Below, in pieces: positions 29,547 through 54,449 of a DNA stretch of 64,000 nucleotides. Position numbers and translations under genes: made by a program. The notes beneath the pieces were generated by a model that worked only from the letters and a program-made list of their open reading frames with translations, was not told where the DNA came from and did not search any database. This DNA is from Escherichia phage vB-Eco-KMB22. Position 1 is the stretch's first letter, and each line of letters opens with the position of its first letter. The stretch lies in the sequence record OR539217.1; one strand, written 5' to 3'.

Positions 29547-30957
<1,411 letters not shown>

Positions 30958-30961
<4 letters not shown>

Positions 30962-31188
30962 TTATTTTTCTCAACCAATGATTGAATATAATCATGTAGG
31001 TCTTTAGATGCTTTACCCCACTTATTTTGGTATTCATTTTTAAGATTAGCACGTGATTGAGCTAATAAAACATCATTAGTTGGAGGTAAAGATTCTAACC
31101 GCTGAATCTGGCGTCCGTAAATCATTGCAGCCATCTCGGATTCATAAATCAATCCTTTGAGATGTTCAAATTGATGCCATGAAATCAT
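30958..31188 (-). CDS. hypothetical protein
   Basis: 76-aa ORF. Confidence 0.5.
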
Positions 31189-31481: not shown

Positions 31482-31831
31482 TTAGAAAGGTCCTGGATGT
31501 CTTCTGCGAACTTGTTGAAGGAGTTGTTGATTTGTTTTTCAACCAATCCTGGCTTATGAGCCACCACATCCGCCTTCTTTGCGTCTTTGCGCAGTTTTTC
31601 ATTTTCACGCTCAATAGCAGCAATTGCCTCACGATTTTTATTATTCATCGCATCAATATAATTATACTGAATTCGCAAATTATTTAATGCTAAAGCGTTT
31701 TCATTGGCCGTTTTTGTAATTTCTACAACAGACGTTTCTAATCTTTCAATTTTATTTTTTAAAATTAAAGAAGTTCCGCCCAATGCAATTACAATTAATA
31801 GCAAGCCTGTTGTCGTATTACTTAATTGCAT
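31478..31831 (-). CDS. inner-membrane spanin (i-spanin, Rz equivalent)
   Basis: 117 aa; N-terminal TM helix then coiled-coil-like region. Confidence 0.7.
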   Translation of the reverse strand: MQLSNTTTGLLLIVIALGGTSLILKNKIERLETSVVEITKTANENALALNNLRIQYNYIDAMNNKNREAIAAIERENEKLRKDAKKADVVAHKPGLVEKQINNSFNKFAEDIQDLSK

Positions 31832-32328
31832 AAAGTTTTAATAACCTCTATAATATCGTCTTGAGAAAGACCGTTAATTAAAATATGATGTTCAGCCGGA
31901 GATTTAGAAATTTTAAAGCATGCCTCAACATCTTCTGCCATATCCGATGCGCTACGATTTGGATTACTAATTCCAAGACGATGTTTTCCCGTTAAAGGAT
32001 TAACGATGATATAGCATTTACAGTTGTTAATATGAACATTAGGTTGAGTCTGATTAATGAACACATCACAATCATATTTCGCAAGCTGATTTTCTAAAAA
32101 GACTTTCATCTCCTCAACCGCATCAGGAAGCATATCACGGGCTTGCTCAAGACGACGATTTCGATATTCTTTAATGGTCGTTTTCCGCTTGACTTGCTTA
32201 GCTAAATCTTTCTTAAGATCGGTGATATATCCAACTCGACGATTTCCTTTAAATACAGAAATCCCATCTGTAGTATCACCGTATGCTTCAACGACCATTT
32301 CAGTAGTAATAAGCTGTAAATCCATCAT
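31822..32328 (-). CDS. alc: Alc transcription terminator for dC-DNA
   Basis: 168 aa, matches recalled T4 Alc; early promoter 32357-32386. Confidence 0.85.
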   Translation of the reverse strand: MMDLQLITTEMVVEAYGDTTDGISVFKGNRRVGYITDLKKDLAKQVKRKTTIKEYRNRRLEQARDMLPDAVEEMKVFLENQLAKYDCDVFINQTQPNVHINNCKCYIIVNPLTGKHRLGISNPNRSASDMAEDVEACFKISKSPAEHHILINGLSQDDIIEVIKTLCN

Positions 32329-32356
32329 AAAGTCCTCATGTTATGTCAGTAAGACT

Positions 32357-32386
32357 ACTGTAACACAACACGAGGGACTTGTAAAC
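32357..32386 (-). promoter_or_regulatory. early promoter for alc (GTTTACA-17-TACAGT)
   Basis: copy of the 16547-16576 cassette with one substitution in -10. Confidence 0.65.
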
Positions 32387-32389
32387 AGC

Positions 32390-33977
<1,588 letters not shown>

Positions 33978-34004
33978 AATAAAATGGGCCTTGCGGCCCA
34001 CTCC

Positions 34005-35183
34005 TTAAAAATATTTTTTAAAACTCATCATAACTTTATCATCAACGTCATTATCAATCTGTGCTACAAGATAAGATGACAGTTCTACTTCTTGTGGCGC
34101 GGATTGAACATTATCAGAATTAAGATACTCACGAATCCAAGGATATGGATGTTTAACCGGAGCATCGGTAATTGGGCATGGAAGACCACACTGTTTCATA
34201 CGAGATACAGTTAAGTAATCAATAAAGCTCCACATGCTATTTGTATTTAATCCAGGAACATCGCCATCTTTAAATAAATGAACTGCCCAATCTTTTTCTT
34301 GGCGGTTAACTTCCATGAAAATATCAACTGCTTCTTGTTCACACTCTTGAGCAATTTTAACCCATTCATCGCCATCAGTGCCAAGTTGAAGTTGACGAAT
34401 AATATATTGGGTGCCTTTAAGGTGAAGCTGCTCATCACGTGCAATGAACTTCATAATCTTGGCATTACCTTCCATGATTTCCATATTCTTATGGAAGTTA
34501 AAGGTACATGCAAAAGATACATAAAAACGAATAGCTTCTAGGGCATTAATAACGTGCAAACAGAGGTAAAGAGATTTCATTAAAGCACGTTTAGCTTCGG
34601 CTTCTTGTTTAATAGCTCGGTTTAAACGAAAGTCAGCATCAGGAGATTCTTTAGCTAGTTCTACAAATTCTTTAGCATTTTCCCATTCACGGGTTTTAAT
34701 CAGAACATCATCATAATAACGTCCAATTGATTCAGCACGTTTCATAATAGCTTCATCCAATACAATTTCATCAAATACCTTCGATGGATCAGTATAAAGA
34801 TTTCGCATGATATGAGTATATGAACGGCTGTGAATAGTTTCACTAAAAGTCCATGTAGCAACCCATGTATCAAGACTTGGGTCTGAAATTAATGACATAA
34901 GTACAGCAGATGGCGCACGACCCTGAATGCTATCCAAAAGTGATTGATACTTCAAGTTATTAGTAAAAATGTTTTGCTGATACTGAGGAAGCTTATTAAA
35001 CTGTGCAGCATCCATCATTAAGTTTACTTCTTCAGGCCGCCAGAAAAATGATAATTGCTTTTCGGTCAAATCTTCAAAAACTTTATGACGTTGAATATCA
35101 TAACGCGCAATACCAAGACCTGAACCAAAAAACATGGGTTCTTTTAAAACATCAACTGGATTTGTATTAAAAACTGTGCTCAT
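34005..35183 (-). CDS. nrdB: ribonucleotide reductase small subunit, uninterrupted
   Basis: 392 aa continuous; no intron. Confidence 0.9.
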   Translation of the reverse strand: MSTVFNTNPVDVLKEPMFFGSGLGIARYDIQRHKVFEDLTEKQLSFFWRPEEVNLMMDAAQFNKLPQYQQNIFTNNLKYQSLLDSIQGRAPSAVLMSLISDPSLDTWVATWTFSETIHSRSYTHIMRNLYTDPSKVFDEIVLDEAIMKRAESIGRYYDDVLIKTREWENAKEFVELAKESPDADFRLNRAIKQEAEAKRALMKSLYLCLHVINALEAIRFYVSFACTFNFHKNMEIMEGNAKIMKFIARDEQLHLKGTQYIIRQLQLGTDGDEWVKIAQECEQEAVDIFMEVNRQEKDWAVHLFKDGDVPGLNTNSMWSFIDYLTVSRMKQCGLPCPITDAPVKHPYPWIREYLNSDNVQSAPQEVELSSYLVAQIDNDVDDKVMMSFKKYF

Positions 35184-35234
35184 AAATTTTCCACTTAGTT
35201 AATAGTTGGTGACTCGTCCATGAGTCAAATTATA

Positions 35235-37499
35235 TCATAATTTACAGGATGAACAATCTTCAGCTTTTGGAGTTTCTATTTCATAATCATCAGTACCAGA
35301 ACCATCGCGGGTATTATGATAATAGAAATTTTTTCCGCCAAAATACCAAAAATACAAAAGGTCATCAATCATTATTGACATTGGAACCTTTCCTTTTGGA
35401 AAAATCTGCGGGTCATAGTATGTATTCGCCGAAGCTGATTGACAAACCCATTTCAGCATAATAGCTACCTGCGTAAGATAAGGTTTATTACCTTTCTTAG
35501 CTAATTTCCATGTATAATCATAGAGGTCTATGTTATGCTCAATATTGGGCACGACTTGATTAAAGGAACCCTCTTTTGATTCTTTAACAGAGACTGGTCC
35601 ACGTGGAGGCTCGATACCGTTTGTACTGTTAGAAACTTGGGAAGATGACTCACATGGCATAAGTGCTGATAATGTGCTATTACGGATGCCAAAGAGCTTA
35701 AGGTCTTCCCGCAGCGACGACCAGTCACAAACGTATTTTGGAGCTGCGATTTGGTCAATCTTTTTATTGTACCAGTCGATAGGTAATTCGCCTCGAGACC
35801 AACGAGTGTCTGAATAATATTCGCAAGGTCCTTTTTCTTTGGCGAGCTTAATGGATGCTTTAATGAGTCCATACTGTAATCTCTCAAATAGTTCATGTGT
35901 TAAATCGTTAGCATCTTCATAAGAAGCAAAGTTACTTGCCAGCCAAGCTGCATAGTTGGTAACACCTACACCGAGGTTACGACGCTTTTTAGCTTTTTCT
36001 GCTTCAGGAACTGGATATCCTTGGTAATCCAAAAGATTATCAAGAGCACGAACTTGAACTTCTGCCAATTCATTAATTTTATCTTGGTCTTGCCAGTCAA
36101 AATTATCTAGTACGAATGCAGAAAGAGTACACAATCCAATTTCAGCATCAGGGCTATTCACATCATTTGTTGGAATAGCAATTTCACAGCACAAGTTACT
36201 CTGACGAATAGGTGCCTTTTCACGAATAAACGGAGTGTAGTTATTCGTATTATCAATGAACTGCACATAAATCCTTGCTGTTCCTGAACGTTCAGTCATG
36301 AGCAATTCAAATAGTTCACGGGCTTTAATACGCTTTTTGCGAATATTAGGGTCTTTTTCTGCTGCTTCGTATAATTCACGGAAACGGTCTTGGTCTTTAA
36401 AATAAGAATAATAAAGCTCGCCACCCATTTCATGCGGACTGAACAAAGTAATGTAATCGTTCTTTCCGAATCGTTCCATCATCAAATCATTCAGTTGAAC
36501 ACCATAATCCATATGACGAATGCGGTTTTCTTCTACGCCTTTGTTATTTTTCAAAACGAGAAGATTTTCAACTTCCAAATGCCAAATAGGATAATAAGCA
36601 GTAGCAGCGCCGCCACGAATTCCACCCTGTGAACATGATTTAACTGCAGTCTGAAAATGTTTCCAAAAAGGAATAACACCAGTATGACGTACTTCACCCA
36701 TGCCAATCTTAGAACCTTCGGCACGAATCATACCAACGTTAATACCAATTCCAGCACGTTTGGAGATATATTCAACAATCGAAGCGGAAGCCTTATTGAT
36801 AGACTTCAATGAATCACCTGCCTCAATAACAACGCATGAACTAAACTGTCGAGTCGGAGTACGGCAACCAGCCATAATAGGAGTTGGCAATGAAATCTGT
36901 CGAGTAGATACTGCTTCATAAAAACGGATAACATGTTTTAATCTATCAACAGGTTCATCTTGATGCAATGCCATTCCAATAGCCATAAATGCAAACTGTG
37001 GAGTTTCATAAATTTGACCAGTGGTTTTATCTTTAACTAGATATTTTTCTTTTAATTGCATCGCCCCGGAATAAGTAAATTCCATATCCCGTTCGTGCTT
37101 AATTTTTGATTCTAAAAATGTAATTTCTTCTGCTGAATATTTTGACAATAATTCAGGGTCATATTTACCTTCATTTACGCAGTAAGAAATATGGTCAATA
37201 AATGAACGTGGTTCATACTGCCCATAAACATGCTTACGAAGAGCAAACATTAAACAGCGGGCAGCTACATATTGGTAATCAGGCTCTTCAACCGAAATAG
37301 AATTCGCAGCAGCCTTAATGACAATAGTCTGAATATCATCAGTTGTCATTCCATCACGGAGATAAGATTTAATGTTTTCATATAATTCATAAGGATCTAC
37401 TGATGTTCCTTCAGCTGCCCAAGATAAAACTTTAATAATTTTTTGTGGGTCAAAGCTCTGAGAAACACCACTACTTTTGATAACATTAATTAATTGCAT
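35235..37499 (-). CDS. nrdA: ribonucleotide reductase large subunit
   Basis: 754 aa; class Ia RNR catalytic cysteines region. Confidence 0.95.
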   Translation of the reverse strand: MQLINVIKSSGVSQSFDPQKIIKVLSWAAEGTSVDPYELYENIKSYLRDGMTTDDIQTIVIKAAANSISVEEPDYQYVAARCLMFALRKHVYGQYEPRSFIDHISYCVNEGKYDPELLSKYSAEEITFLESKIKHERDMEFTYSGAMQLKEKYLVKDKTTGQIYETPQFAFMAIGMALHQDEPVDRLKHVIRFYEAVSTRQISLPTPIMAGCRTPTRQFSSCVVIEAGDSLKSINKASASIVEYISKRAGIGINVGMIRAEGSKIGMGEVRHTGVIPFWKHFQTAVKSCSQGGIRGGAATAYYPIWHLEVENLLVLKNNKGVEENRIRHMDYGVQLNDLMMERFGKNDYITLFSPHEMGGELYYSYFKDQDRFRELYEAAEKDPNIRKKRIKARELFELLMTERSGTARIYVQFIDNTNNYTPFIREKAPIRQSNLCCEIAIPTNDVNSPDAEIGLCTLSAFVLDNFDWQDQDKINELAEVQVRALDNLLDYQGYPVPEAEKAKKRRNLGVGVTNYAAWLASNFASYEDANDLTHELFERLQYGLIKASIKLAKEKGPCEYYSDTRWSRGELPIDWYNKKIDQIAAPKYVCDWSSLREDLKLFGIRNSTLSALMPCESSSQVSNSTNGIEPPRGPVSVKESKEGSFNQVVPNIEHNIDLYDYTWKLAKKGNKPYLTQVAIMLKWVCQSASANTYYDPQIFPKGKVPMSIMIDDLLYFWYFGGKNFYYHNTRDGSGTDDYEIETPKAEDCSSCKL

Positions 37500-37816
37500 A
37501 AGTCCTCAACTTGAAAATCGTCTTTAAACAATCGGTTAACTATATGAGCTATTATATCACCATGACACGGCTTTGGTTTACATGTGCATCCTAGCCTCAT
37601 TCCACGTAAAGGCTCTAAATGTGCTTTAGTTATTTCTCCGGATTTAATTCGACGTATAAAATCTTTTTTGAATAATTCAATGGCAGCCTCCCGGCTGCCA
37701 GCATCTTTACCGACGTAATTTCCCCAAAATGTACCGCGGTGAATATTAACATCAAAGTCGGATTTATATTTATTCACTACCCGGCATAGACGGCCCACGC
37801 TGGAATAATTCGTCAT
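37490..37816 (-). CDS. hypothetical protein with [11 protein letters not shown] motif (nrdA.1 position)
   Basis: 108-aa ORF, Cys/His cluster. Confidence 0.55.
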
Positions 37817-38033
37817 ATTGTTTTTCCGTTAATACAGTAATATCATAGTAACAATCGGAAGAAGTTTTAACTGTGGAAATTTTATTATCAAAATACTCAC
37901 GAGTCATTTTATGAGTATAATATTTTTTACCATAAATGATAATAGGCTGTTCTGGTCCTGGAACTTCTAACTCGCTTGGGTTAGGAAGTGTAAAAAGAAC
38001 AACGCCAGAAGTATCTTTAAATCGTAAAATCAT
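37770..38033 (-). CDS. hypothetical protein (nrdA.2 position)
   Basis: 87-aa ORF. Confidence 0.5.
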
Positions 38034-38890
38034 ATTGCCATTTTCCCTTTAATTGCTGGATGCGATTCATAATTTTCAAGGATAAAATCTTTCGGTTTCA
38101 TGTATTCAGTTAACCAGTAAAGCTGTGTTTCGGTGTCACAATTTCCAAACTCTATAGGCCAATCAATTTTAAGTTCACATAGTTCTTTAGGCTCACGACG
38201 TAAAATTTCTTTACATTGCTCAGTATGATTCATATAGATGTGAGTATTACCACCAGAAAATATCAAATCTCCTGGGATAAGATTACACATCTTAGCCACA
38301 ATATGTGTCAAGGCAGCGTACGAGGCAATGTTGAATGGCAATCCCAAGAAAACATCTACACTTCTTTGGTACCATTGTAAATCAAGATAACCATTACGCA
38401 CATTAAACTGATAGAACATATGACAGGGCGGTAATGCCATTTGATTGATTTCAGCTGGATTCCATGCTGAAACGATTTGACGTCGATCAGTTGGTAATTT
38501 TTTAATACGATCAATAGTTTCAACTAATTGATCCACACCACCGAAATCACGCCATTGTTTACCGTATATAGGACCAAGTTCACCACTATGATATCCTAGG
38601 TCTTTAGCCTGGTTTTCATAGTTATCGTCCCAAATAGTTTTACCTTGAATAAGACTACCATGAGTGCGAAGACGTAAATCATTAACATTGGTAGAACCGG
38701 AAATAAACCATAGAAGCTCAGCAATGCATGCATTCCAGGCGAGCTTCTTAGTTGTTACTGCAGGAAAACCTTTAGTTAAATCCCAACGCAATTTAGTACC
38801 GAACAAAGCAATTGTTCCTGTGCCTGTTCGGTCATCGGTTTCATAACCATTTTCAAAAATGTCTTTAATTAAATCTTGGTATTGTTTCAT
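38030..38890 (-). CDS. td: thymidylate synthase, intron-less
   Basis: 286 aa continuous ORF; catalytic PPCH motif; no group I intron. Confidence 0.95.
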
Positions 38891-38934
38891 TTAGTACCTT
38901 ATATAAATTATAATACATTTTATGAAGCTAATAA

Positions 38935-39282
38935 TCAATACGGTTTAGCATCAAATTTTCTTTCAATTTCAGGCGTAAAATACAATTCTTTACCACGCTT
39001 GGAAAAGCGACCAATAATATGATAATTATTCTCATCAAACGTGATATTGCCGATATCCATAGCTTTCAACCAAATATCGATATTTCTGTCAAGCTTTATA
39101 TCAAAATTCCAATATGGAGAACTATTACCAAAAATACTACAAGCGGATTCAGTGAAACAACTGCTATAAATCTTGTCTTTAGGAACTACTAATTGATAGA
39201 CACCTTTAATAAACTGAGGACCCTGCCATTTTGGTTGTTTCGCGTCTTTTTCTAATAGAATAGGGTAATAATTAAAATTCAT
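38935..39282 (-). CDS. hypothetical protein inserted between frd and td
   Basis: 115-aa ORF, no recognisable motif. Confidence 0.55.
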   Translation of the reverse strand: MNFNYYPILLEKDAKQPKWQGPQFIKGVYQLVVPKDKIYSSCFTESACSIFGNSSPYWNFDIKLDRNIDIWLKAMDIGNITFDENNYHIIGRFSKRGKELYFTPEIERKFDAKPY

Positions 39283-39301
39283 ATTTTCCGCCAGTGTTAT
39301 T

Positions 39302-40128
<827 letters not shown>

Positions 40129-40139
40129 ATTATCTCCTA

Positions 40140-40472
40140 TTAAAAAGGATCAGGAACATATCCGCTAGCTTTAATCATTTTAATTAACGTTAACATTCCT
40201 TTGTTAACTGCTCGTGAGATTTCATCAAAAACTTCATCACTAAAAAGTTCTAACACGCCCTTCTGAACTTTTAATTTACAGCCAACAATTTCTTCATCGC
40301 CTATAGTAAATTCATTACCACCAATTCCACCGAAAAACTTAATTACACCAGTTAACTGTCTTCCACGAGAATATGGGTCGTGTGATAAAGTAATATGAGT
40401 CACCCCGGGTACAGTTTTAAATTGGCAGCGAATATTTACTTGTGAAATTCCAGTTACATGAATGTCAGACAT
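40140..40472 (-). CDS. hypothetical protein (frd.x)
   Basis: 110-aa ORF. Confidence 0.5.
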   Translation of the reverse strand: MSDIHVTGISQVNIRCQFKTVPGVTHITLSHDPYSRGRQLTGVIKFFGGIGGNEFTIGDEEIVGCKLKVQKGVLELFSDEVFDEISRAVNKGMLTLIKMIKASGYVPDPF

Positions 40473-40482
40473 AATATTTTCC

Positions 40483-40725
40483 TCAAATAGACTTTTTCAC
40501 AATTTTCCAATCAGCTTTAAACTGCTCGACGTCAGAATGGTAAATCCAGAATCCTGCGCTTTCTCCGTCTTCATAAAGAGGACATCTATCACATTCATCT
40601 TCCCATCCCATGTCACGTAAAAGATGTTCAGCTTTTTCAACAAGTTCAGAATCTTTACCGATGATATTAAAATACCATTTACCTCTAACTTCTGAATCTT
40701 TGATGCTTTGGCGTTGTAATCTCAT
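40483..40725 (-). CDS. hypothetical protein (frd.x)
   Basis: 80-aa ORF. Confidence 0.5.
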   Translation of the reverse strand: MRLQRQSIKDSEVRGKWYFNIIGKDSELVEKAEHLLRDMGWEDECDRCPLYEDGESAGFWIYHSDVEQFKADWKIVKKSI

Positions 40726-40782
40726 TTTATTCTCCTCAGTGGTTAATAGGGTAATAGTATCACACTACTACCCTGTTGTAAA

Positions 40783-41163
40783 CTACTTTTTGAAAGTTTT
40801 TCGCAAAAGTTCAATGATTTCGTCTACATTGTTTTCATCTACAATGCAGTGAATTTTTGTTACGCCAGAAACCGGGTCTTTGACTTCATCTTTTTCAGAA
40901 GTCGGTTCTTTATACTCACGAAAACAATGAAATTCGTCTTCGCAAATTTCTAAAAGTCTATCTTTGAGGTAAAAATGCTTTCCATTTGCGCATTCAATGT
41001 GTTTTACTGCTTTATATCCGTTAGCGACGGAAACTTCTTTAACTTCAAACCATCCGCCATTATCTCGAATGGCTTTAACTATTGATGAATTAGAACGTGG
41101 GCTATAATTAATAAATGTATCAATAAGTCTTGGAACAAGTTCATACTTTTTACCAGTATACAT
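40783..41163 (-). CDS. hypothetical protein
   Basis: 126-aa ORF. Confidence 0.5.
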   Translation of the reverse strand: MYTGKKYELVPRLIDTFINYSPRSNSSIVKAIRDNGGWFEVKEVSVANGYKAVKHIECANGKHFYLKDRLLEICEDEFHCFREYKEPTSEKDEVKDPVSGVTKIHCIVDENNVDEIIELLRKTFKK

Positions 41164-41207
41164 TACGGTTTCCTCATTTTAATAGGGGCTTGATAGCCCC
41201 TTGATAA

Positions 41208-41459
41208 TTATTGTTCAATCAGTCCCATGTAAAATTCTGCGTCTTCAGAATCCATGCCATCACAATATTCATTAGCCATAAAGCGGGTGAGGTCTTCAAG
41301 AGGACCTTCAATGACAATAGAAAAATTGCAATAATTGGGATCATCGTGAATACTTGTGATGCTAAGTTCAGGATAACGATTACGAATAATTTCTTCGATA
41401 TATTCAAAATCAACGATGTCAATATCAACTTTAGCCATATTATTTTCCTCTTTAATCAT
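41208..41459 (-). CDS. hypothetical acidic protein
   Basis: 83-aa ORF; early-type promoter 41476-41510. Confidence 0.5.
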
Positions 41460-41475
41460 CAGCAGTATTGCTGAT

Positions 41476-41510
41476 AGTTGTATAGTACCATGGAAGAACA
41501 GGGATGTAAA
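41476..41510 (-). promoter_or_regulatory. early-type promoter (ATTTACA-17-TACTAT)
   Basis: shares leader motif with 58453 and 62150 cassettes. Confidence 0.5.
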
Positions 41511-41520
41511 TAGTTTTGTG

Positions 41521-41566
41521 AAAAAAAAAATTTTTTAAAATAAAAAAGGGGACCCTAGAGGTCCCC
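41521..41566 (-). terminator. hairpin plus long U-run after gene 32
   Basis: 7-bp GC stem followed on - strand by >20 T/A-rich run. Confidence 0.8.
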
Positions 41567-41588
41567 AATTAATTAGTAATATAATCTA

Positions 41589-42494
41589 TTAAAGGTCATT
41601 CAAAAGGTCATCCAGGTCCGTGTCATCAGCACTAGATGAACTGCCAGAGCTTGAGCTCATAAAATCATCTTCAGTTTTTGTATTGAAGTCATCAACATTG
41701 AATGCATCCAAATCATCAGCAACTTTATCAGCTTTCTTAGCAGCAGTTGCTGCGGCACCACCCATAGCAGCAGTTCCCATAACTTGACTGAACTTAGTGC
41801 TCAGTTCTTCAAACGATTTGAATTTATCTTTAGAAGTCATTTCAGAAAGGTCAACCATTTGTTCGAACAGTTCTTTCTGGAAAGATTCATCATCAATGTT
41901 TGGAATCGCAGATTGATTCAGGAATTTAGATTCGTCGTAGTTACTAAAACCAGAAACTTGTTTAACTTTCAGTACAAAATTAGCACCTTCCCACGGACAA
42001 GTTACATCAACCGGAGTTTCACCCATTTCAACATCAACCGCAATCATCGCGTTGATTTTATCCCAGATTTTCTTACCGAAACGATATTTAAATACTTTAC
42101 CTTCATTTTCTGGAGCAGCTGGGTCTTTTACAACAAGAATATTAGCCCAGTAAGAAGTTTTACGTTTAACAAGACTGTACTCTTTATTGTCAGTGTTGTA
42201 CAAATCATTTTTACTGATGTACTGACATACTGGGCAAGAATCGTAATCACCGTGGGTAGATGAACATGTTTCAATATACCATTTACCATTTTTCTTGAAA
42301 CCGTGATTTACAAGAATTGCGAATGGTGCTTGTTCATCATTTTTAGACGGAAGAAAACGAATTACTGCTTGACCGTTACCCGCATTGTCGAGTTTCAGTT
42401 TCCACTCGCCTTTATCTTCAGAAGAAAAACCTTTATTGCCATTCAGTTTAGCCATTTGTGCAGCAAGTTCAGCAGTAGATTTACGTTTAAACAT
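41589..42494 (-). CDS. 32: ssDNA-binding protein gp32
   Basis: 301 aa; zinc-finger region and acidic Ser/Asp-rich C-terminus. Confidence 0.95.
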
Positions 42495-42543
42495 TTTATT
42501 TCCTTTTTAATTTAATTAACAGTTGGTGCTATGACACTTTACC

Positions 42544-43176
42544 TCATAGCTGGCATAATTTGCAATACTCTGGGTCTTCGAGAGGTATCCAACCTGAGTT
42601 GAAATACTTTACCATCGATTTAGCAGTTGTATCAGTTATATTTATATTACCTTTAACTCTTCGCCATCCAGGAGTTTTACCGTACAGATTAGAGGATAAT
42701 AATAACACATAATTCTCGTAAGCAATATGAGATAATTTCCAAGACTCTATATTAGCTCGTGATGTTTTCCAAGGTCTAAAATCGTCACGGTTCATATAAT
42801 TAGCCAATCTCATATGCTCTCTAACTTCCGGGTCTTTGGCTGGATGAGTTTCACCACTCACACCAAATCCACCACCAGCATATACCAGATTAAAATAGTC
42901 TGGATTATCTCTGGCATTTACTTCAAGTTGGTATTTTCGTTCTGCTTCAATAACATCCAAGTCATCATCAATTTGAATTATTTTAACGCTCGGTTTTTGA
43001 AGCATTACCGCATTCAAAAATCTTTTTTGTTTACATGAACTCCAGTATTCCTTTCCGGAAGAGTCATATATTATTCCGTTCTCAAATGAGCAATTTAATT
43101 TACTACCGATATAGTAGTATGGCGGAGTCTTATTTTTGATACGGTCTTCAAATGTAAACCAATATACTATATTCAT
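42544..43176 (-). CDS. segG: GIY-YIG homing endonuclease (SegG-like)
   Basis: 210 aa; N-terminal IVYWFTF...PYYYIGS GIY-YIG motif; located between 32 and 59. Confidence 0.65.
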   Translation of the reverse strand: MNIVYWFTFEDRIKNKTPPYYYIGSKLNCSFENGIIYDSSGKEYWSSCKQKRFLNAVMLQKPSVKIIQIDDDLDVIEAERKYQLEVNARDNPDYFNLVYAGGGFGVSGETHPAKDPEVREHMRLANYMNRDDFRPWKTSRANIESWKLSHIAYENYVLLLSSNLYGKTPGWRRVKGNINITDTTAKSMVKYFNSGWIPLEDPEYCKLCQL

Positions 43177-43177
43177 A

Positions 43178-43831
43178 TCAATACTTGCAAGATTTCACAG
43201 TTTCAATGAAAACATTTTTAGCTTTCTGTGAATCAATATTTAAAATTTTTCTATAAGCCTTTAACTTTATAGAATAATTATTCCAGACTAAATTATCAGT
43301 CTGTTCATCATGTTTATCAATTATATTTAAAAATGAATCAAGCAAAATAAACGTCTCAAACGAAATTATGTTCGATTGCAGAAGTTTAAAAATATAACTT
43401 GACTGGACCTTTGGATTATATTCAAAGATTTCTTTAAAAGCAGAAACTTCAACTTTTTTACTAAAATAATAAATGTTGCGAATATCTTCTTCAAACTTAA
43501 ATTTAATTTGCTTTAAGCGTCCGATATATTCACGATAAAACACAAGTGCATCAGCGTCAGAGATGTCACCAATCCAAGCATCTTGGTTAGCAACCAAATT
43601 ACTTATAAAAATTAAAGCAAGTTCCTTTAATTTATATTTTTCTGATAACTTCTGGAAAAAATACTTATCCCTTCGCTTTTGATAAGCGGCATCAGACACC
43701 CGCATGCACCAATTATACTTAATAACATCATACTTTCCATTCATATGTTGTTTTATCATTAAGTATAATTTATAAACTGATTTACCATCAATGTATCTTT
43801 CACCACCAGCAGGCATGCGGAGTTTAATCAT
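43178..43831 (-). CDS. 59: helicase loader gp59
   Basis: 217 aa, position and length. Confidence 0.9.
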   Translation of the reverse strand: MIKLRMPAGGERYIDGKSVYKLYLMIKQHMNGKYDVIKYNWCMRVSDAAYQKRRDKYFFQKLSEKYKLKELALIFISNLVANQDAWIGDISDADALVFYREYIGRLKQIKFKFEEDIRNIYYFSKKVEVSAFKEIFEYNPKVQSSYIFKLLQSNIISFETFILLDSFLNIIDKHDEQTDNLVWNNYSIKLKAYRKILNIDSQKAKNVFIETVKSCKY

Positions 43832-44166
43832 AGTAGAAAATCTAATGTATTAGTTTTTTCACAACGAACAACAGAAGGACGTAAAAGATTTTCGTCAATA
43901 GCTTCTGACTGAATTTTTTCAATTATACCCGAAGGAATAAATTTAGCAAATTGAGTTTCAGGAATAGAATTTTCTTCCAAGAATGCTGTCGTAGCTTCAA
44001 GATAACTCATTCCAAACTCTTCTACCATTTTTTCAATAATAAATCCATTTTCTTGACGATCAAGAAGCTTTGCTATTTCATCCTTTTCTTTCTTAATTGA
44101 AAGTTCTTTTTCTGAAAGACCGGTCTCATCGACCGGACGAATATCATTTAGAGAAAACTGTGTCAT
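43828..44166 (-). CDS. 33: late transcription co-activator gp33
   Basis: 112 aa from MTQFSLND. Confidence 0.85.
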   Translation of the reverse strand: MTQFSLNDIRPVDETGLSEKELSIKKEKDEIAKLLDRQENGFIIEKMVEEFGMSYLEATTAFLEENSIPETQFAKFIPSGIIEKIQSEAIDENLLRPSVVRCEKTNTLDFLL

Positions 44167-44413
44167 AAAGTTCAACTACCTCTTCAGTTTCAGCTTCAAA
44201 CACATCACGGTTATCTTTATGATACAAAGCTAATAGACGATTAAACATCTTACCATCAACGCCAAGTTCATCTTTGGCACGAATTCGAATATCTTTAATC
44301 AGTTCATTATAACCGGAAATTTTCAGTTTATGATCAGATGCTTCTTTAATAAATTTAGCCAAGTCTTCGCCATGGATAGCTTCATCAAATTCAACCATTT
44401 CTTTTTTAGCCAT
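44144..44413 (-). CDS. dsbA: DsbA dsDNA-binding protein
   Basis: 89 aa, position between rnh and 33. Confidence 0.8.
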   Translation of the reverse strand: MAKKEMVEFDEAIHGEDLAKFIKEASDHKLKISGYNELIKDIRIRAKDELGVDGKMFNRLLALYHKDNRDVFEAETEEVVELYDTVFSK

Positions 44414-44421
44414 TATTCACC

Positions 44422-45339
44422 TCAAAATTCATTAATGCTATTAGTTAATTTAGAAAGACCCGCTTTTACAAAATATGAATAAATTTTGCCACGCGGTGGT
44501 AATTTATATGAATTATAGTAATTCACAATGTTTGAAGCAATATTATCAGGAATATAATCAAAATCAATTAGAACTAAATTTTCTTTATAACGATTATATT
44601 CAGATTCTGTGAGAAGCACCTTAGCTTGCTCACGGTCATTAGCAATAGCTTCAACGATTGAAGTTTTCATTGAAGGAGTTCGTTCACCTTCAACTCTGGT
44701 AAACCAAAAGTCAGATCGTACTTTAACTGAAGCAACGTTATCCTTTTTGTCGCCTTTAAGGATTTTAGTCATGCAATCAATTTCAGCAGAACCGCTTTTA
44801 ATTTTAACCCATTTCTTATGCATCGGTGACCATTGCTTAACATTTGGATATTTGTGAAGCTGTGTAAAGTCACCATCCGATGAAATGATTAAAATCTTGT
44901 GTCCTTCTAAAGAGAACTTTTTAACAAGAACAGCAATGTGGTCATCCGCTTCATACTTATCAATATCCATAACAATGTATGGCATATAAGCTTTCAATTC
45001 ATCTATAACTTTATGGCTGGATTCAAAATAACCTTCCCAGTCCCAAGTAGATTCTTCTCGTGCTTTTCCACGGTTTTTCTTATAATAATAAGCGAAATCA
45101 CGACGCCAGTATCCAGATTTCGCGTTATCAATACACAGTACAATTTTAGTGTATCCAAGCGTTTTTGCTTTTTTGACATTAAACTTAATTGAGTTCAATA
45201 TCAAATGACGAACCATTGATAAATTAATTTTTTCTTTATCTGGGAAGTTTACTAAAGCAGTTGAAAGCGCAATTTGACTAAAGTCAATAAAGCAAATTCC
45301 TTCTTTGTAATCTTCATCCAACATCATTTCTAAATCCAT
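44422..45339 (-). CDS. rnh: RNase H (5'-3' exonuclease, FEN family)
   Basis: 305 aa from internal ATG with GAGG SD. Confidence 0.9.
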   Translation of the reverse strand: MDLEMMLDEDYKEGICFIDFSQIALSTALVNFPDKEKINLSMVRHLILNSIKFNVKKAKTLGYTKIVLCIDNAKSGYWRRDFAYYYKKNRGKAREESTWDWEGYFESSHKVIDELKAYMPYIVMDIDKYEADDHIAVLVKKFSLEGHKILIISSDGDFTQLHKYPNVKQWSPMHKKWVKIKSGSAEIDCMTKILKGDKKDNVASVKVRSDFWFTRVEGERTPSMKTSIVEAIANDREQAKVLLTESEYNRYKENLVLIDFDYIPDNIASNIVNYYNSYKLPPRGKIYSYFVKAGLSKLTNSINEF

Positions 45340-45368
45340 ATGAACCTCGTTCAATTAGTGAGATTTCT

Positions 45369-45398
45369 ATTATATACCATCCAAATCTTAAAGTAAAC
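45369..45398 (-). promoter_or_regulatory. early promoter for rnh (GTTTAC-n-TATATAAT), divergent from gene 34 late promoter
   Basis: motif and spacing. Confidence 0.6.
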
Positions 45399-45401
45399 AA
45401 G

Positions 45402-45409
45402 TATAAATA
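45402..45409 (+). promoter_or_regulatory. late promoter TATAAATA for gene 34
   Basis: exact match. Confidence 0.7.
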
Positions 45410-45443
45410 CTTATTATTGAAAACACAATAGGAGCCCGGGAGA

Positions 45444-48400
45444 ATGGCCGAGATTAAAAGAAAGTTCAGAGCAGAAGACGGTCTGGACGCAGGTGGCGAT
45501 AAAATAATCAACGTAGCTTTAGCTGATCGTACCGTAGGAACTGACGGTGTTAACGTTGATTACTTAATTCAAGAAAACACAGTTCAACAATATGATCCAA
45601 CTCGTGGATATTTAAAAGATTTTGTAATCATTTATGATAACCGCTTTTGGGCTGCTATAAATGATATTCCAAAACCGGCAGGAGCTTTTAATAGCGGGCG
45701 CTGGAGAGCATTACGTACAGACGCAAACTGGATTACGGTTTCATCTGGTTCATATCAATTAAAATCCGGTGAAGCTATTTCGGTTAATACTGCAACTGGA
45801 AATGACATCACGTTTACTTTACCATCTTCTCCAATTGATGGAGATACTATCGTTCTCCAAGATATTGGAGGAAAACCTGGAGTTAACCAAGTTTTAATTG
45901 TAGCTCCAGTGCAAAGTATTGTAAACTTTAGAGGTGAACAGGTACGTTCAGTACTAATGACTCATCCAAAGTCACAGCTAGTTTTAATTTTTAGTAATCG
46001 TCTGTGGCAAATGTATGTAGCTGATTATAGTAGAGAAGCTGTAGTTGTAACACCAGCGAATACTTATCAAGCGCAATCTAATGATTTTATCGTGCGTAGA
46101 TTTACTTCTGCTGCACCAATTAATGTCAAACTTCCAAGATTTGCTAATCATGGCGATATTATTAATTTCGTTGATTTAGATAAACTGAATCCACTTTATC
46201 ATACAATTGTTACTACATACGATGAAACGACTTCAGTACAAGAAGTTGGAACTCATTCCATTGAAGGCCGTACATCGATTGACGGTTTCTTGATGTTTGA
46301 TGATAATGAGAAATTGTGGAGATTGTTTGACGGGGATAGTAAAGCACGTTTACGCATTATAACGACTAATTCTAATATTCGTCCAAACGAAGAAGTTATG
46401 GTATTTGGTGCGAATAACGGAACAACCCAAACAATTGAGCTTCAGCTTCCTACTGATATTTCTGTTGGTGATACTGTTAAAATTTCCATGAATTACATGA
46501 GAAAAGGACAAACAGTTAAAATCAAAGCTGCCGGTGAAGATAAAATTGCTTCTTCAGTTCAATTGCTGCAATTCCCAAAACGCTCAGAATATCCGCCTGA
46601 AGCTGAATGGGTTACAGTCCAAGAATTAGTTTTTAATGGTGAAACTAATTATGTTCCAGTTTTACAGCTCGCTTATATTGAAGATTCTGATGGAAAATAC
46701 TGGGTTGTACAGCAAAATGTTCCAACTGTAGAAAGAGTAGATTCTTTAAATGATTCTACTAGAGCAAGATTAGGCGTAATTGCTTTAGCTACACAAGCTC
46801 AAGCTAATGTCGATTTAGAAAATTCTCCACAAAAAGAATTAGCAATTACTCCAGAAACGTTAGCTAATCGTACTGCTACAGAAACTCGCAGAGGTATTGC
46901 AAGAATAGCAACTACCGCTCAAGTAAATCAGAACACCACATTCTCTTTTGCAGATGACCTTATCATTACTCCTAAAAAGCTGAATGAAAGAACTGCTACA
47001 GAAACTCGTAGAGGTGTTGCTGAAATTGCTACGCAGCAAGAAACTAATACAGGTACTGATGATACTACAATCATCACTCCTAAAAAGCTTCAAGCTCGCC
47101 AAGGTTCTGAATCATTATCTGGTATTGTAACTTTTGTATCTACTGCAGGTGCTACTCCAGCTTCTAGTCGTGAATTAAATGGTACGAATGTTTATAATAA
47201 AAACACTAATAATTTAGTTGTTTCACCTAAAGCTTTGGATCAGTATAAAGCTACTCCAACACAGCAAGGTGCAGTAATTTTAGCAGTTGAAAGTGAAGTA
47301 ATTGCTGGACAAAGTCAGGAAGGATGGGCAAATGCTGTTGTAACGCCAGAAACGTTACATAAAAAGACATCAACTGATGGAAGAATTGGTTTAATTGAAA
47401 TTGCTACACAAAGTGAAGTTAATACAGGAACTGATTATACTCGTGCAGTCACTCCTAAAACTTTAAATGACCGTAGAGCAACTGAAAGTTTAAGTGGTAT
47501 AGCTGAAATTGCTACACAAGTTGAATTCGACGCAGGCGTCGACGATACTCGTATCTCTACACCATTAAAAATTAAAACTAGATTTAATAGTACTGATCGT
47601 ACTTCTGTTGTTGCTCTATCTGGATTAGTTGAATCAGGAACTCTCTGGGACCATTATACCCTTAATATTCTTGAAGCAAATGAGACACAGCGTGGTACAC
47701 TTCGTGTAGCTACACAGGTTGAAGCTGCTGCAGGAACATTAGATAATGTTTTAATAACTCCTAAAAAGCTTTTAGGTACTAAATCTACCGAATCGCAAGA
47801 AGGTGTTATTAAAGTTGCAACTCAGTCTGAAACTGTGACTGGAACATCAGCAAATACTGCTGTATCTCCAAAAAATTTAAAATGGATTGTGCAGAGTGAA
47901 CCTACCTGGGCAGCTACTACTGCGATAAGAGGTTTTGTTAAAACTTCATCTGGTTCAATTACATTCGTTGGTAATGATACAGTCGGTTCTACCCAAGATT
48001 TAGAACTGTATGAGAAAAATAGCTATGCGGTATCACCATATGAATTAAACCGTGTATTAGCAAATTATTTGCCGTTAAAAGCAAAAGCTGTAGATAGTAA
48101 TTTATTGGATGGTCTAGATTCATCTCAGTTCATTCGTAGGGACATTGCGCAGACAGTTAATGGTTCACTAACCTTAACCCAACAAACGAATCTGAGTGCC
48201 CCTCTTGTATCATCTAGTACTGCTGCGTTTGGTGGTTCAGTTTCGGCAAATAGTACATTAACTATTTCTAATACTGGAACGGCAACTCGTCTGATTTTTG
48301 AGAAAGGACCTCAAACTGGAACTAACCCAGCGCAGACGATGACTATCAGAGTTTGGGGAAATCAGTTTGGTGGTGGATCAGATACAACACGTTCTACTGT

Positions 48401-49313
48401 ATTTGAAGTTGGTGATGAAACATCTAATCACTTTTATTCTCAACGTAATAAAGCTGGTAATATTACGTTTAGCATTAATGGTACTGTGATGCCAATAAAT
48501 GTTAACGCTTCCGGTTCATTGAATGCGAATGGCGTAGCAACATTTGGTAGTTCAGTTACAGCCAATGGTGAATTCATTAGCAAGTCTGCAAATGCTTTCA
48601 GAGCAATAAACGGTGATTATGGATTCTTTATCAGGAATGATGGCGGCAGTACATATTTTATGCTTACTGCATCTGGTGATCAGACCGGTGGATTTAATGG
48701 ATTACGTCCATTATCAATTAATAATCAATCCGGTCAAGTCACAATTGGTGAAAGCTTAATCATTGCCAAAGGTGCTACTATAAATTCAGGCGGTTTAACT
48801 GTTAACTCGAGAATTCGTTCTCAGGGTACTAAAACATCTGATTTATATACCCGTGCGCCAACATCTGATACGGTAGGATTCTGGTCAATTGATATTAACG
48901 ATTCAGCCACTTATAACCAATTCCCGGGTTATTTTAAAATGGTTGAAAAAACTAATGAAGTGACTGGGCTTCCATACTTAGAACGTGGAGAAGAAGTTAA
49001 ATCTCCTGGTACACTGACTCAGTTTGGTAATACACTTGATTCACTTTACCAAGATTGGATTACTTATCCAACGACGTCAGACGCGCGTACCACTCGCTGG
49101 ACACGTACATGGCAGAAAACCAAAAACTCTTGGTCAAGTTTTGTTCAGGTATTTGATGGAGGTAACCCTCCTCAACCATCTGATATCGGTGCTTTACCAT
49201 CTGATAATGCCACAATGGGTAATCTTACTATTCGTGATTTCTTACGAATTGGTAATGTTCGCATTATTCCTGACCCAGTGAATAAAACGGTTAAATTTGA
49301 ATGGGTTGAATAA
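45444..49313 (+). CDS. 34: long tail fibre proximal subunit gp34
   Basis: 1289 aa; about ten ~40-aa internal repeats; late promoter 45402-45409. Confidence 0.95.
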   Translation: MAEIKRKFRAEDGLDAGGDKIINVALADRTVGTDGVNVDYLIQENTVQQYDPTRGYLKDFVIIYDNRFWAAINDIPKPAGAFNSGRWRALRTDANWITVSSGSYQLKSGEAISVNTATGNDITFTLPSSPIDGDTIVLQDIGGKPGVNQVLIVAPVQSIVNFRGEQVRSVLMTHPKSQLVLIFSNRLWQMYVADYSREAVVVTPANTYQAQSNDFIVRRFTSAAPINVKLPRFANHGDIINFVDLDKLNPLYHTIVTTYDETTSVQEVGTHSIEGRTSIDGFLMFDDNEKLWRLFDGDSKARLRIITTNSNIRPNEEVMVFGANNGTTQTIELQLPTDISVGDTVKISMNYMRKGQTVKIKAAGEDKIASSVQLLQFPKRSEYPPEAEWVTVQELVFNGETNYVPVLQLAYIEDSDGKYWVVQQNVPTVERVDSLNDSTRARLGVIALATQAQANVDLENSPQKELAITPETLANRTATETRRGIARIATTAQVNQNTTFSFADDLIITPKKLNERTATETRRGVAEIATQQETNTGTDDTTIITPKKLQARQGSESLSGIVTFVSTAGATPASSRELNGTNVYNKNTNNLVVSPKALDQYKATPTQQGAVILAVESEVIAGQSQEGWANAVVTPETLHKKTSTDGRIGLIEIATQSEVNTGTDYTRAVTPKTLNDRRATESLSGIAEIATQVEFDAGVDDTRISTPLKIKTRFNSTDRTSVVALSGLVESGTLWDHYTLNILEANETQRGTLRVATQVEAAAGTLDNVLITPKKLLGTKSTESQEGVIKVATQSETVTGTSANTAVSPKNLKWIVQSEPTWAATTAIRGFVKTSSGSITFVGNDTVGSTQDLELYEKNSYAVSPYELNRVLANYLPLKAKAVDSNLLDGLDSSQFIRRDIAQTVNGSLTLTQQTNLSAPLVSSSTAAFGGSVSANSTLTISNTGTATRLIFEKGPQTGTNPAQTMTIRVWGNQFGGGSDTTRSTVFEVGDETSNHFYSQRNKAGNITFSINGTVMPINVNASGSLNANGVATFGSSVTANGEFISKSANAFRAINGDYGFFIRNDGGSTYFMLTASGDQTGGFNGLRPLSINNQSGQVTIGESLIIAKGATINSGGLTVNSRIRSQGTKTSDLYTRAPTSDTVGFWSIDINDSATYNQFPGYFKMVEKTNEVTGLPYLERGEEVKSPGTLTQFGNTLDSLYQDWITYPTTSDARTTRWTRTWQKTKNSWSSFVQVFDGGNPPQPSDIGALPSDNATMGNLTIRDFLRIGNVRIIPDPVNKTVKFEWVE

Positions 49314-49321
49314 GAGGTATT

Positions 49322-50437
49322 ATGGAAAAATTTATGGCAGAGTTTGGACAAGGATATGTCCAAACGCCATTTTTATCGGAAAGTAATTCAGTAAGATACA
49401 AAATAAGTATAGCGGGTTCTTGCCCGCTTTCTACAGCAGGACCATACGTTAAATTTCAGGATAATCCTGTAGGAAGTCAAACATTTAGCGCAGGTCTTCA
49501 TTTAAGAGTTTTTGACCCTTCCACCGGAGCATTAGTTGATAGTAAGTCATATGCTTTTTCGACTTCAAATGATACTACATCAGCTGCTTTTGTTAGTTTC
49601 ATGAATTCTTTGACGAATAATCGAATTGTCGCTATATTAACTAGTGGAAAGGTTAATTTTCCTCCTGAAGTAGTATCTTGGTTAAGAACCGCCGGAACGT
49701 CTGCTTTTCCATCTGATTCTATATTGTCAAGATTCGACGTATCATATGCTGCTTTTTATACTTCTTCTAAAAGAGCTATTGCATTAGAGCATGTTAAATT
49801 AAGTAATAGAAAAAGCACAGATGATTATCAAACTATTTTAGATGTTGTATTTGACAGTTTAGAAGACGTCGGAGCTACCGGGTTTCCAAGAAGAACGTAT
49901 GAAAGCGTTGAGCAATTCATGTCAGCGGTTGGTGGAACTAATAACGAAATTGCGCGTCTACCAACTTCAGCTACTATAAGTAAATTATCTGATTATAATT
50001 TAATTCCTGGCGATGTTCTTTATCTTAAAGCTCAGTTATATGCTGATGCCGATTTACTTGCTCTTGGAACTACAAATATATCTATCCGTTTTTATAATGC
50101 ATCAAATGGATATATTTCCTCGACACAAGCTGAATTTACCGGACAAGCTGGGTCATGGGAATTAAAGGAAGATTATGTAGTTGTTCCAGAAAACGCTGTA
50201 GGATTTACGATATATGCACAAAGAACTGCTAAAGCTGGCCAAGGTGGCATGAGAAATTTAAGCTTTTCTGAAGTATCAAGAAACGGTGGTATTTCAAAAC
50301 CTGCTGAATTTGGCGTCAACGGTATTCGTGTTAATTATATCTGTGAATCCGCTTCACCTCCGGATATAATGGTACTTCCTACGCAAGCATCATCTAAAAC
50401 TGGTAAAGTGTTTGGGCAAGAATTTAGAGAAGTATAA
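49322..50437 (+). CDS. 35: long tail fibre hinge gp35
   Basis: 371 aa, position. Confidence 0.9.
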   Translation: MEKFMAEFGQGYVQTPFLSESNSVRYKISIAGSCPLSTAGPYVKFQDNPVGSQTFSAGLHLRVFDPSTGALVDSKSYAFSTSNDTTSAAFVSFMNSLTNNRIVAILTSGKVNFPPEVVSWLRTAGTSAFPSDSILSRFDVSYAAFYTSSKRAIALEHVKLSNRKSTDDYQTILDVVFDSLEDVGATGFPRRTYESVEQFMSAVGGTNNEIARLPTSATISKLSDYNLIPGDVLYLKAQLYADADLLALGTTNISIRFYNASNGYISSTQAEFTGQAGSWELKEDYVVVPENAVGFTIYAQRTAKAGQGGMRNLSFSEVSRNGGISKPAEFGVNGIRVNYICESASPPDIMVLPTQASSKTGKVFGQEFREV

Positions 50438-50440
50438 ATT

Positions 50441-50468
50441 GAGGGAGCCTTCGGGTTCCCTTTTTCTT
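50441..50468 (+). terminator. hairpin plus U-run after gene 35
   Basis: gggagcc-ttcg-ggttccc then ttttt. Confidence 0.75.
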
Positions 50469-50476
50469 TATAAATA
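50469..50476 (+). promoter_or_regulatory. late promoter TATAAATA for gene 36
   Basis: exact match. Confidence 0.7.
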
Positions 50477-50499
50477 CTATTAAAATAAAGGGGCATACA

Positions 50500-51165
50500 A
50501 TGGCTGATTTAAAAGTAGGTTCAACAACCGGAGGCTCTGTCATTTGGCATCAAGGAAATTTTCCATTGAATCCAGCCGGTGACGATGTACTCTATAAATC
50601 ATTTAAAATATATTCAGAATATAATAAACCACAAGCTGCTGATAACGATTTCGTTTCTAAAGCTAATGGTGGTACTTATGCATCAAAGGTAACATTTAAC
50701 GGTGGAATTCAAGTTCCGTATGCTGTAAACAACACAAACCCATGCGGTGTTTATCCAGGTAACGGTGATAATGCTACTTTTGCTGTAGCAAATATCGATA
50801 TTGTTTCGTGGAATGGTATTGGTTTTAAATCATCACAAGGTTCAGCAGCTCGAACTGTTGTAATTAATGCACGTAATGGTGATATTAGTACAAAAGGCGT
50901 TGTGTCGGCAGCAGTTCAAGTAAGAAGTGATGCGGCTGCTCCTATAGCAGCGAATGACCTTACTAGAAAGGACTATGTTGATGGAGCAATAAATACTGTT
51001 ACGGCAAATGCAAACTCTAGGGTGCTACGGTCTGGTGACACCATGATAGGTAATTTAACAGCGCCAAACTTTTTCTCGCAGAATCCTGCATCTCAACCTT
51101 CACACGTTCCACGATTTGACCAAATCGTAATTAAGGATTCTGTTCAAGATTTCGGCTATTATTAA
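50500..51165 (+). CDS. 36: long tail fibre distal connector gp36
   Basis: 221 aa; late promoter 50469-50476. Confidence 0.9.
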
Positions 51166-54100: not shown

Positions 54101-54449
54101 ACAAGCCGGCATACCCAATAACATATTCTATGACGGATATAATAGTGTAGGTGCAAACGCCAACGCTAAATTCACTGGAACCGTGAACGGTGCTACTGCA
54201 GGGTCGAATATAGCCAAAACTTCTTCAGACGGTGCTCATACTCATACTTGGTCTGGTACTACAAGCACTACAGGTAACCATGCTCACACAGTAGGTATTG
54301 GTGCTCATACCCATACTGTAGGTATCGGTGCTCATACCCACACGGTAGCAATTGGCTCGCATGGTCATACTATCACTGTAAATAGTACAGGTAATACAGA
54401 AAACACGGTTAAAAACATTGCTTTTAACTATATCGTTCGTTTAGCATAA
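51174..54449 (+). CDS. 37: long tail fibre distal subunit gp37 (receptor-binding tip)
   Basis: 1091 aa; C-terminal His-x-His repeats and [11 protein letters not shown] terminus. Confidence 0.95.
54291..54371 (+). repeat. three 27-bp tandem units encoding His-x-His nonapeptides in gp37 tip
   Basis: units 1 and 2 differ only at 3 synonymous positions; unit 3 diverged. Confidence 0.85.

Follow-up and report, generated by a model that had tools for sequence, protein, structure and literature searches.

A near-identical copy of T4 segG between genes 59 and 32 of Escherichia phage vB-Eco-KMB22, a T4 relative with five other T4 selfish-element sites empty

The segG gene, its cassette and the gene 32 upstream region

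The window analysed in this study is a stretch of 64,000 nucleotides (64 kb) from Escherichia phage vB-Eco-KMB22 (accession no. OR539217.1), which extends from within gene 23 to the start codon of rIIB and represents ~38% of the ~168 kb genome. The ORF list of the window contains a coding sequence of 210 aa plus stop codon on the minus strand (42544-43176), flanked by two genes of the same orientation. The upstream neighbour is gene 59 (helicase loader; 43178-43831, minus strand), the product of which is identical to T4 gp59 at 217/217 aa, and the downstream neighbour is gene 32 (ssDNA-binding protein; 41589-42494, minus strand), the product of which is identical to T4 gp32 at 298 of the 301 aa. 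The ORF is separated from the stop codon of gene 59 (43178) by 1 bp and from the start of gene 32 (42494) by 49 bp.

The original prediction described this ORF as a SegG-like GIY-YIG gene between genes 32 and 59. Comparison with T4 identified the product as SegG itself at the 32/59 site of T4, with 207/210 identical residues (98.6% in tblastn) and three substitutions relative to T4 SegG (V13I, L57V and E206K); nucleotide identity to the T4 records was 99.4%. The T4 RefSeq record carries SegG, annotated as "homing endonuclease; GIY-YIG family", in exactly the same position. The ORF thus shows what is expected of a SegG orthologue, namely high identity over the full length and a co-oriented location between genes 59 and 32. 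It is intact, keeps 11/11 residues that are invariant in the family, and generated a hit on phrog_7504 ("homing endonuclease") over residues 1-210 with an E value of 2e-133. T4 SegG (gene 32.1; NP_049855) was described by Liu, Belle, Shub, Belfort and Edgell (2003, J Mol Biol 334:13; cited in PMC2330249 and PMC2988022), and experiments established that it is a GIY-YIG endonuclease that targets gene 32, cutting this gene in phages without SegG such as T2, and that T2 gene 32 markers are excluded (PMC2988022, PMC2330249). The T4 gene and the gene in the window share the length of 210 aa, the insertion site between genes 59 and 32, the orientation, the embedded TTGCTTA and TATAAATA motifs, and a stop codon located inside a hairpin upstream of gene 32. 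They differ in their surroundings, as the backbone around the gene is teqdroes/303Ecol101PP-like here and is the T4 backbone in T4. We therefore conclude with high confidence that the ORF is segG, a homing endonuclease gene of the free-standing kind, carried by a Tequatrovirus.

The borders of the insertion were determined in an alignment of ten sequences, five with segG (the window, T4, PE37, SH-2 and P922) and five without it (T2, AV120, wV7, SH7 and teqhal). The segG cassette comprises 626 bp (42554-43179, minus strand), compared with 38 bp in the empty-site phages, and the junctions of cassette and filler were identical within the five segG-positive and within the five segG-negative phages. 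The 38-bp filler reads AATTGCTTATTATAAATAGATTATAATTATCTCACTGA, and the right junction, CCAGCTATGAGG, is common to genomes with and without segG.

Two promoter-like elements were read from the sequence inside segG. The octamer ATTGCTTA (42719-42726, minus strand) resembles a MotA box and is a candidate gene 32 middle promoter, and TATAAATA (42639-42646, minus strand) corresponds to the T4 late-promoter consensus and is a candidate gene 32 late promoter. According to a review, gene 32 has its middle and late promoters within segG, an arrangement that favours retention of segG (PMC2988022); judged from its sequence, the octamer at 42719-42726 may be the middle promoter concerned. The 38-bp filler of the empty-site phages contains its own MotA-box-like TTGCTTA and its own late-promoter consensus TATAAATA. 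A generic sigma-70 promoter and terminator scan around segG returned 9 sites against 8.1 expected, which is not above background, and the sigma-70 model is unsuited to middle and late promoters of T4.

Folding of the strand in the window and in T2 (positions 1210-1290 of the T2 locus) placed a hairpin, GCUAUGA...UCAUAGC, upstream of gene 32 (42528-42550, minus strand), which may correspond to the translational operator pseudoknot of gene 32. The stop codon of segG, UGA (42544-42546), is located in the 5′ arm of this hairpin. The stem is identical in phages with and without segG, and the loop carries three SNPs and a 3-nt indel that are perfectly associated with the presence of segG in the comparison of five against five phages. 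Probably, segG is also kept because promoter elements of gene 32 are located inside it and its stop codon forms part of the hairpin.

Empty selfish-element sites and the relation of the window to T4 and its relatives

The window was compared with T4 by blastn, and the alignment was read against the T4 annotation. Five T4 blocks had no counterpart in the window: segD, segE, mobE, the td intron with I-TevI, and the nrdB intron with I-TevIII. Alignment to T4, proposed as a check together with the original prediction, thus showed these elements to be present in T4 and absent from the window. The intergenic region between genes 23 and 24 (1308-1390) is 83 bp long, close to the ~80 bp given in the original prediction, and in T4 it is 789 bp including segD. 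The genes inh and uvsW had been called adjacent, and 50 bp (6109-6158) were found between them, compared with 635 bp including segE in T4. The region between nrdA and nrdB (35184-35234) is 51 bp long, compared with ~700 bp carrying nrdB.1 and mobE in T4; this further empty site had not been named in the original prediction.

Both td and nrdB are uninterrupted, as had been predicted. Each is a single ORF colinear with the joined T4 exons, nrdB encoding 392 aa (34005-35183, minus strand), where T4 has an additional ~600 bp (intron and defective I-TevIII), and td encoding 286 aa (38030-38890, minus strand), where T4 has an additional 1016-1021 bases (intron and I-TevI). For td, the T4 exons were explicitly joined before alignment, and the junction in the window was intact (VDVFLG/LPFNIASY), the extra bases of T4 being located at FLG/LPF. 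For nrdB, the two T4 exons aligned end to end with the window gene. An Rfam scan of the window for group I introns generated no matches, and neither did the td and nrdB introns of T4 that served as the control; the control was run at the gathering threshold. At this threshold Rfam thus misses the T4 td and nrdB introns, and a negative Rfam scan cannot show that ORF-containing phage introns are absent. The absence of introns from td and nrdB is therefore based on the continuity of the ORFs and on the alignments.

The C-terminus of Td had also been said to differ from that of T4. The peptide singled out in this claim is encoded at 38084-38179 (minus strand), inside td, where T4 has CELVISGLPYKFRYLSTKEQLKYVLKLRPKDF, and the equivalent of exon 2 encodes 76/104 aa identical to T4. 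In this stretch of ~30 aa the sequence is almost wholly replaced relative to T4. The td gene is a mosaic allele in comparison with T4, its exon-1 equivalent being 84% identical in nucleotide sequence and its flanks 94-96%, and it is of the teqdroes type throughout at informative sites. In nrdB, the exon-1 equivalent (34510-35183) is 86% identical to T4 and the exon-2 equivalent is 99% identical at the amino acid level; a variable segment around residues 170-195 makes the protein 4 aa longer than its T4 counterpart.

The suggestion that the phage offers a clean background for homing assays was borne out in part. The nrdB junction is nearly identical to that of the joined T4 exons, but the I-TevI homing site in td carries 11 substitutions between positions -27 and +13, the CNNNG cleavage motif being kept (CAACG in T4, CAAAG in the window).

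Phage records carrying each element numbered 55 for segD, 159 for segE, 21 for mobE at full length, 197 for the td intron and 118 for the nrdB intron. As each of the five elements is a minority trait, a phage lacking all five is unremarkable, and their absence here is the usual state for T4 relatives. T4 with its 15 homing endonuclease genes is an outlier and most relatives have few (PMC2988022); T2 is likewise sparse in such genes compared with T4 (PMC10448857). Their patchy distribution in T-even phages was already known in the late 1980s (PMC2988022).

Homing endonucleases were surveyed within the 64-kb window. All 15 T4 homing endonuclease genes (encoding SegA to SegG, MobA to MobE and I-TevI to I-TevIII) were translated from the T4 record and used as queries in phmmer and hmmsearch with the --max option against all six-frame ORFs of at least 25 aa. 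In phmmer, SegG detected its ORF with an E value of 3e-149, and the other 14 queries had no partner in the window (best E value 0.025, 10.5 bits). Searches with small Seg-family and Mob-family profiles revealed no further homing endonuclease in the window, DenA ranking second on the GIY-YIG profile with an E value of 0.04. Within the 64-kb window, the claim that only one homing endonuclease is present thus holds, SegG alone among the 15 T4 queries having found a partner. Ten ORFs, which together cover every insertion of the window relative to T4, were considered as hidden endonuclease genes in window-specific DNA, and this possibility was rejected, as none matched an endonuclease family; their hits were to PHROGs of unknown function, DUF7247, Phage_30_8, T4_Y13H and Alt.

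The sole window protein that passes the Pfam GIY-YIG model is DenA (endonuclease II; 33567-33977, minus strand), which scored 28.7 bits on PF01541 against a cut-off of 22.6. T4 endonuclease II is an enzyme of host-DNA degradation present in all relatives and has no separate DNA-binding domain, unlike SegG, which is encoded by a mobile cassette. As DenA passes Pfam and SegG does not, a Pfam-based census of this window would flag DenA and miss SegG.

The window aligns to the 102-169 kb region of T4 with ~94-96% identity and many indels, and no phage record at least 99% identical to a 25-kb piece of the window was found. The phage is therefore a Tequatrovirus related to, and distinct from, T4, as the original prediction had it. 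The closest backbones are those of teqdroes and 303Ecol101PP, which possess every window-specific ORF, intronless td and nrdB, and an empty mobE site, and which lack segG. The window and 303Ecol101PP are perfectly identical at 26000-30000, 44000-45500 and 46500-51000, and diverged at 30500-43700 and 46000-46500. This alternation of identical and diverged blocks is a sharp mosaicism, typical of recent Tequatrovirus recombination.

Several further differences from T4 were observed along the window. Two Alt-like ADP-ribosyltransferase genes, both full-length, are arranged in tandem (16576-18633 and 18637-20733, minus strand; 685 and 698 aa), whereas T4 has one alt plus the truncated alt.-1 and alt.-2, described in the T4 record as an old partial duplication; the phage thus keeps an intact alt duplicate. 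A 115-aa ORF (38935-39282, minus strand; phrog_1928, no Pfam match) lies between frd and td, which overlap directly in T4, and is also present in teqdroes and 303Ecol101PP. Other ORFs that T4 lacks, likewise on the minus strand, are two between frd and frd.1 (39883-40128, 81 aa, phrog_3183; and 40140-40472, 110 aa, DUF7247, phrog_3566), one between cd.2 and cd.3 (28478-29005, 175 aa), one adjoining pseT (30641-30961, 106 aa) and one near ndd/denB (61870-62133, 87 aa). The ORFs of 175, 106 and 87 aa matched PHROGs of unknown function, and none of the three is endonuclease-like. The uvsW gene is a 503-aa ORF (6159-7670, plus strand) followed by a separate 76-aa ORF (7696-7926, plus strand); T4 RefSeq has a single 587-aa UvsW with flagged sequence discrepancies, and the window supports the two-gene reading. 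The distal half of gene 37 (51340-54306), corresponding to the tip region of the long tail fibre, is 75-79% identical to T4 or not alignable, and the product is 1091 aa long compared with the ~1026 aa implied by the 3081-nt T4 coding sequence. The divergence of the tip sequence suggests that receptor specificity may differ from that of T4.

Distribution of segG and the diverged patch around it

The segG gene was found in 141 phage records, in all of them at full length and with at least 97.8% identity. Approximately 497 records carry a 32/59 region at least 95% identical to that of the window, and ~356 of these lack segG; the segG-less records that were sampled have the 38-bp filler at the site. 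segG therefore shows a presence/absence polymorphism at a fixed site with precise boundaries.

Around segG, the window departs from its closest relatives. Compared with 303Ecol101PP, ~57 differences are located in 41470-43724, a stretch made up of gene 32, the sequence on either side of segG and the 3′ portion of gene 59, while the bins at 26000-30000 and 44000-45500 show 0 mismatches per 500 bp, and the 43500 and 45500 bins show two mismatches each. On its right side the patch is thus bordered by near-perfect identity. At sites informative between teqdroes and T4, which are few, the window agrees with T4 from 42438 to 43382 and with teqdroes further out. The left edge of the diverged patch is blurred because the region to the left of gene 32 is itself mosaic. 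A search for the exact donor of the segG tract found none.

The ~2-kb diverged patch may be the footprint of co-conversion, a reading that its sequence pattern only suggests. By inference from T4, SegG would combine an N-terminal nuclease domain of the GIY-YIG type with a C-terminal helical DNA-binding domain and, when its phage co-infects a cell with a segG-less relative, would introduce a double-strand break into gene 32 of the relative. In the 2003 work of Liu et al., the T4 SegG cut reportedly lay at a distance of ~330 bp from the site of insertion. Recombinational repair from the segG-positive genome would then copy the local sequence of gene 32, segG and gene 59 into the cut genome, and the outcome would be the spread of segG together with flanking markers, that is, marker exclusion. 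Whether the phage arose in this way, a 303Ecol101PP/teqdroes-type genome having gained segG and a ~2-kb co-converted tract with gene 32 and the 3′ portion of gene 59 from a segG-positive phage, we judge tentatively, at slightly short of an even chance. If true, the phage would document SegG-driven marker exclusion in nature, and the length of the converted tract could be measured.

The gene 32 coding sequence was also compared between the five segG-positive and the five segG-negative phages. No nucleotide was fixed between the two groups. The target thus shows no visible sign of self-protection, and the position of SegG cleavage could not be derived from the sequence in this comparison. An "immunity" polymorphism against SegG in gene 32 was therefore rejected, as the only fixed differences were located in the loop of the hairpin, beside the junction. 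A set of 18 apparent fixed differences at 42678-42710 was an alignment artefact, in which the 38-bp filler had been aligned against segG. At codons 18-21 of gene 32 (42428-42443), a 3-bp deletion and three SNPs are common to the window, T4 and PE37, and are absent from the segG-positive phages SH-2 and P922 and from all five segG-negative phages, indicating that gene 32 alleles are not strictly linked to segG.

The absence of a target-site difference between segG-positive and segG-negative gene 32 would also fit a decayed or domesticated segG, in which the endonuclease is inactive and the gene is kept only for the gene 32 promoters and its part of the operator hairpin. The promoter-like elements of gene 32 inside the ORF (PMC2988022 for the promoters) and the stop codon in the hairpin agree with such a relic, and T4 already has defunct endonuclease genes in I-TevIII and mobA. 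However, the ORF is full length in 141/141 records, and the protein encoded in the window differs by only three conservative changes from the experimentally active T4 protein, with all invariant residues kept. Moreover, the absence of the gene from the closest backbones and the diverged patch around it suggest recent mobility rather than a frozen relic. We consider decay very unlikely and retain the reading of segG as the gene of a homing endonuclease that, by analogy with T4, would cleave gene 32 and home.

The GIY-YIG assignment of SegG and its implications

The SegG sequence in the window divides into an N-terminal nuclease domain with a divergent GIY-YIG fold (approximately residues 1-102; 42871-43176, minus strand) and a C-terminal helical domain, presumed to be the DNA-binding module (approximately residues 110-210; 42547-42849, minus strand). 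The AlphaFold model of SegG (pLDDT 88.7) consists of a β-hairpin-rich N-terminal domain (residues 1-100), a disordered linker (103-108) and a helical C-terminal domain. V4-Y5-W6 is located on strand E3-8 and Y22-I23-G24 on strand E21-26, which places the motifs on a β-hairpin, and the catalytic domain has the alpha/beta fold seen in I-TevI and UvrC. In an alignment of 29 sequences, P19, Y22, I23, G24, S25, K26, Y44, S47, E79, N96 and A100 were invariant; these residues include YIG itself, the Y..S motif of the Seg type and the catalytic residues Glu and Asn. A profile of the GIY-YIG N-terminal domain built from other T4 enzymes had the segG ORF as its top match in the window (E value 0.006). 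Alignment of SegG with other T4 GIY-YIG enzymes by hhalign gave an E value of 1.3e-3 with a probability of only 19%, and placed YIG over YVG, N96 over N90 of I-TevI, and E79 one position off E75. The position aligned with Arg27 of I-TevI has no Arg in SegG, in which K26 is invariant and R12 nearly invariant. The spacing between "VYW" and "YIG" is 16 residues in SegG, longer than the 10-11 residues typical of the GIY-YIG family.

Searches with curated profiles and structures did not detect this relationship. SegG generated no hits on Pfam (PF01541 and PF19835) or NCBIfam families at E values up to 1, a sequence-profile search of the PDB gave no match, a Foldseek search of the model against the PDB gave no significant match (1ln0, E value ~1), and none of 30 SegG homologues carried a precomputed GIY-YIG Pfam domain. 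In control searches, T4 SegG and SegF, both experimentally proven enzymes, also gave no Pfam family, I-TevII and SegE scored under the PF01541 cut-off, and I-TevI and SegA clearly passed. Thus, the test by curated profiles is too insensitive for the SegG clade. Failure in GIY-YIG profile searches, which had been named in advance as speaking against the assignment, did formally occur with Pfam and NCBIfam, but it was not counted, as T4 SegG and SegF fail likewise. That SegG is a nuclease or DNA-binding protein of some other fold, labelled from weak motif matching, would accord with the missing Pfam, NCBIfam and PDB sequence matches, the non-significant Foldseek result and the low hhalign probability, but is extremely improbable given the sequence motifs, the profile alignment and the predicted fold, from which we conclude that SegG is a divergent but genuine GIY-YIG enzyme.

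SegG differs in several respects from I-TevI, the td intron endonuclease and archetypal GIY-YIG enzyme (structures 1LN0 and 1MK0). I-TevI is intron-encoded and SegG free-standing, the sequence similarity between them is under Pfam detection, and the motif spacing is longer in SegG. Their C-terminal domains differ, SegG having neither the zinc finger of I-TevI nor a match to I-TevI_DNA-bd, and the invariant Lys26 of SegG is a candidate counterpart of Arg27 in I-TevI. SegF of T4 is likewise a GIY-YIG endonuclease with a free-standing gene, and it excludes gene 56 of T2 (Belle, Landthaler and Shub 2002; PMC2330249). Like SegG, SegF is encoded next to the essential gene that it cuts, causes localized marker exclusion (PMC2330249), and is invisible to the Pfam GIY-YIG models; it differs from SegG in its site at soc/56, outside the 64-kb window, and the two proteins have no detectable pairwise similarity.

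The SegG clade comprises ~30 clusters in 5.8 billion proteins. In ten SegG homologues the similarity was confined to the N-terminal nuclease half (~50% of the query), and the C-termini of these proteins contained a CPVCGK zinc-finger-like motif, NUMOD3 or a longer HTH tail. The different C-termini on SegG-type N-terminal halves indicate that the catalytic domain has been shuffled onto several DNA-binding modules. As a weaker side point, the SegG clade appears to form a subfamily of GIY-YIG enzymes that escapes Pfam and NCBIfam and has at least three different modules at the C-terminus. As neither database detects the SegG and SegF clades, counts of homing endonuclease genes that rely on profiles miss members of both.

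Taken together, a known gene is present here, nearly unchanged and at its known site, in a relative of T4 with the usual sparse set of selfish elements, which accords with the published picture. Its value is mostly one of annotation: the gene can be labelled segG, and the phage recorded as lacking segD, segE, mobE and the td and nrdB introns. In crosses for homing or marker exclusion, the phage could donate segG and might receive the other five elements, and the closest segG-less backbones would let a co-conversion tract be read directly from natural isolates.
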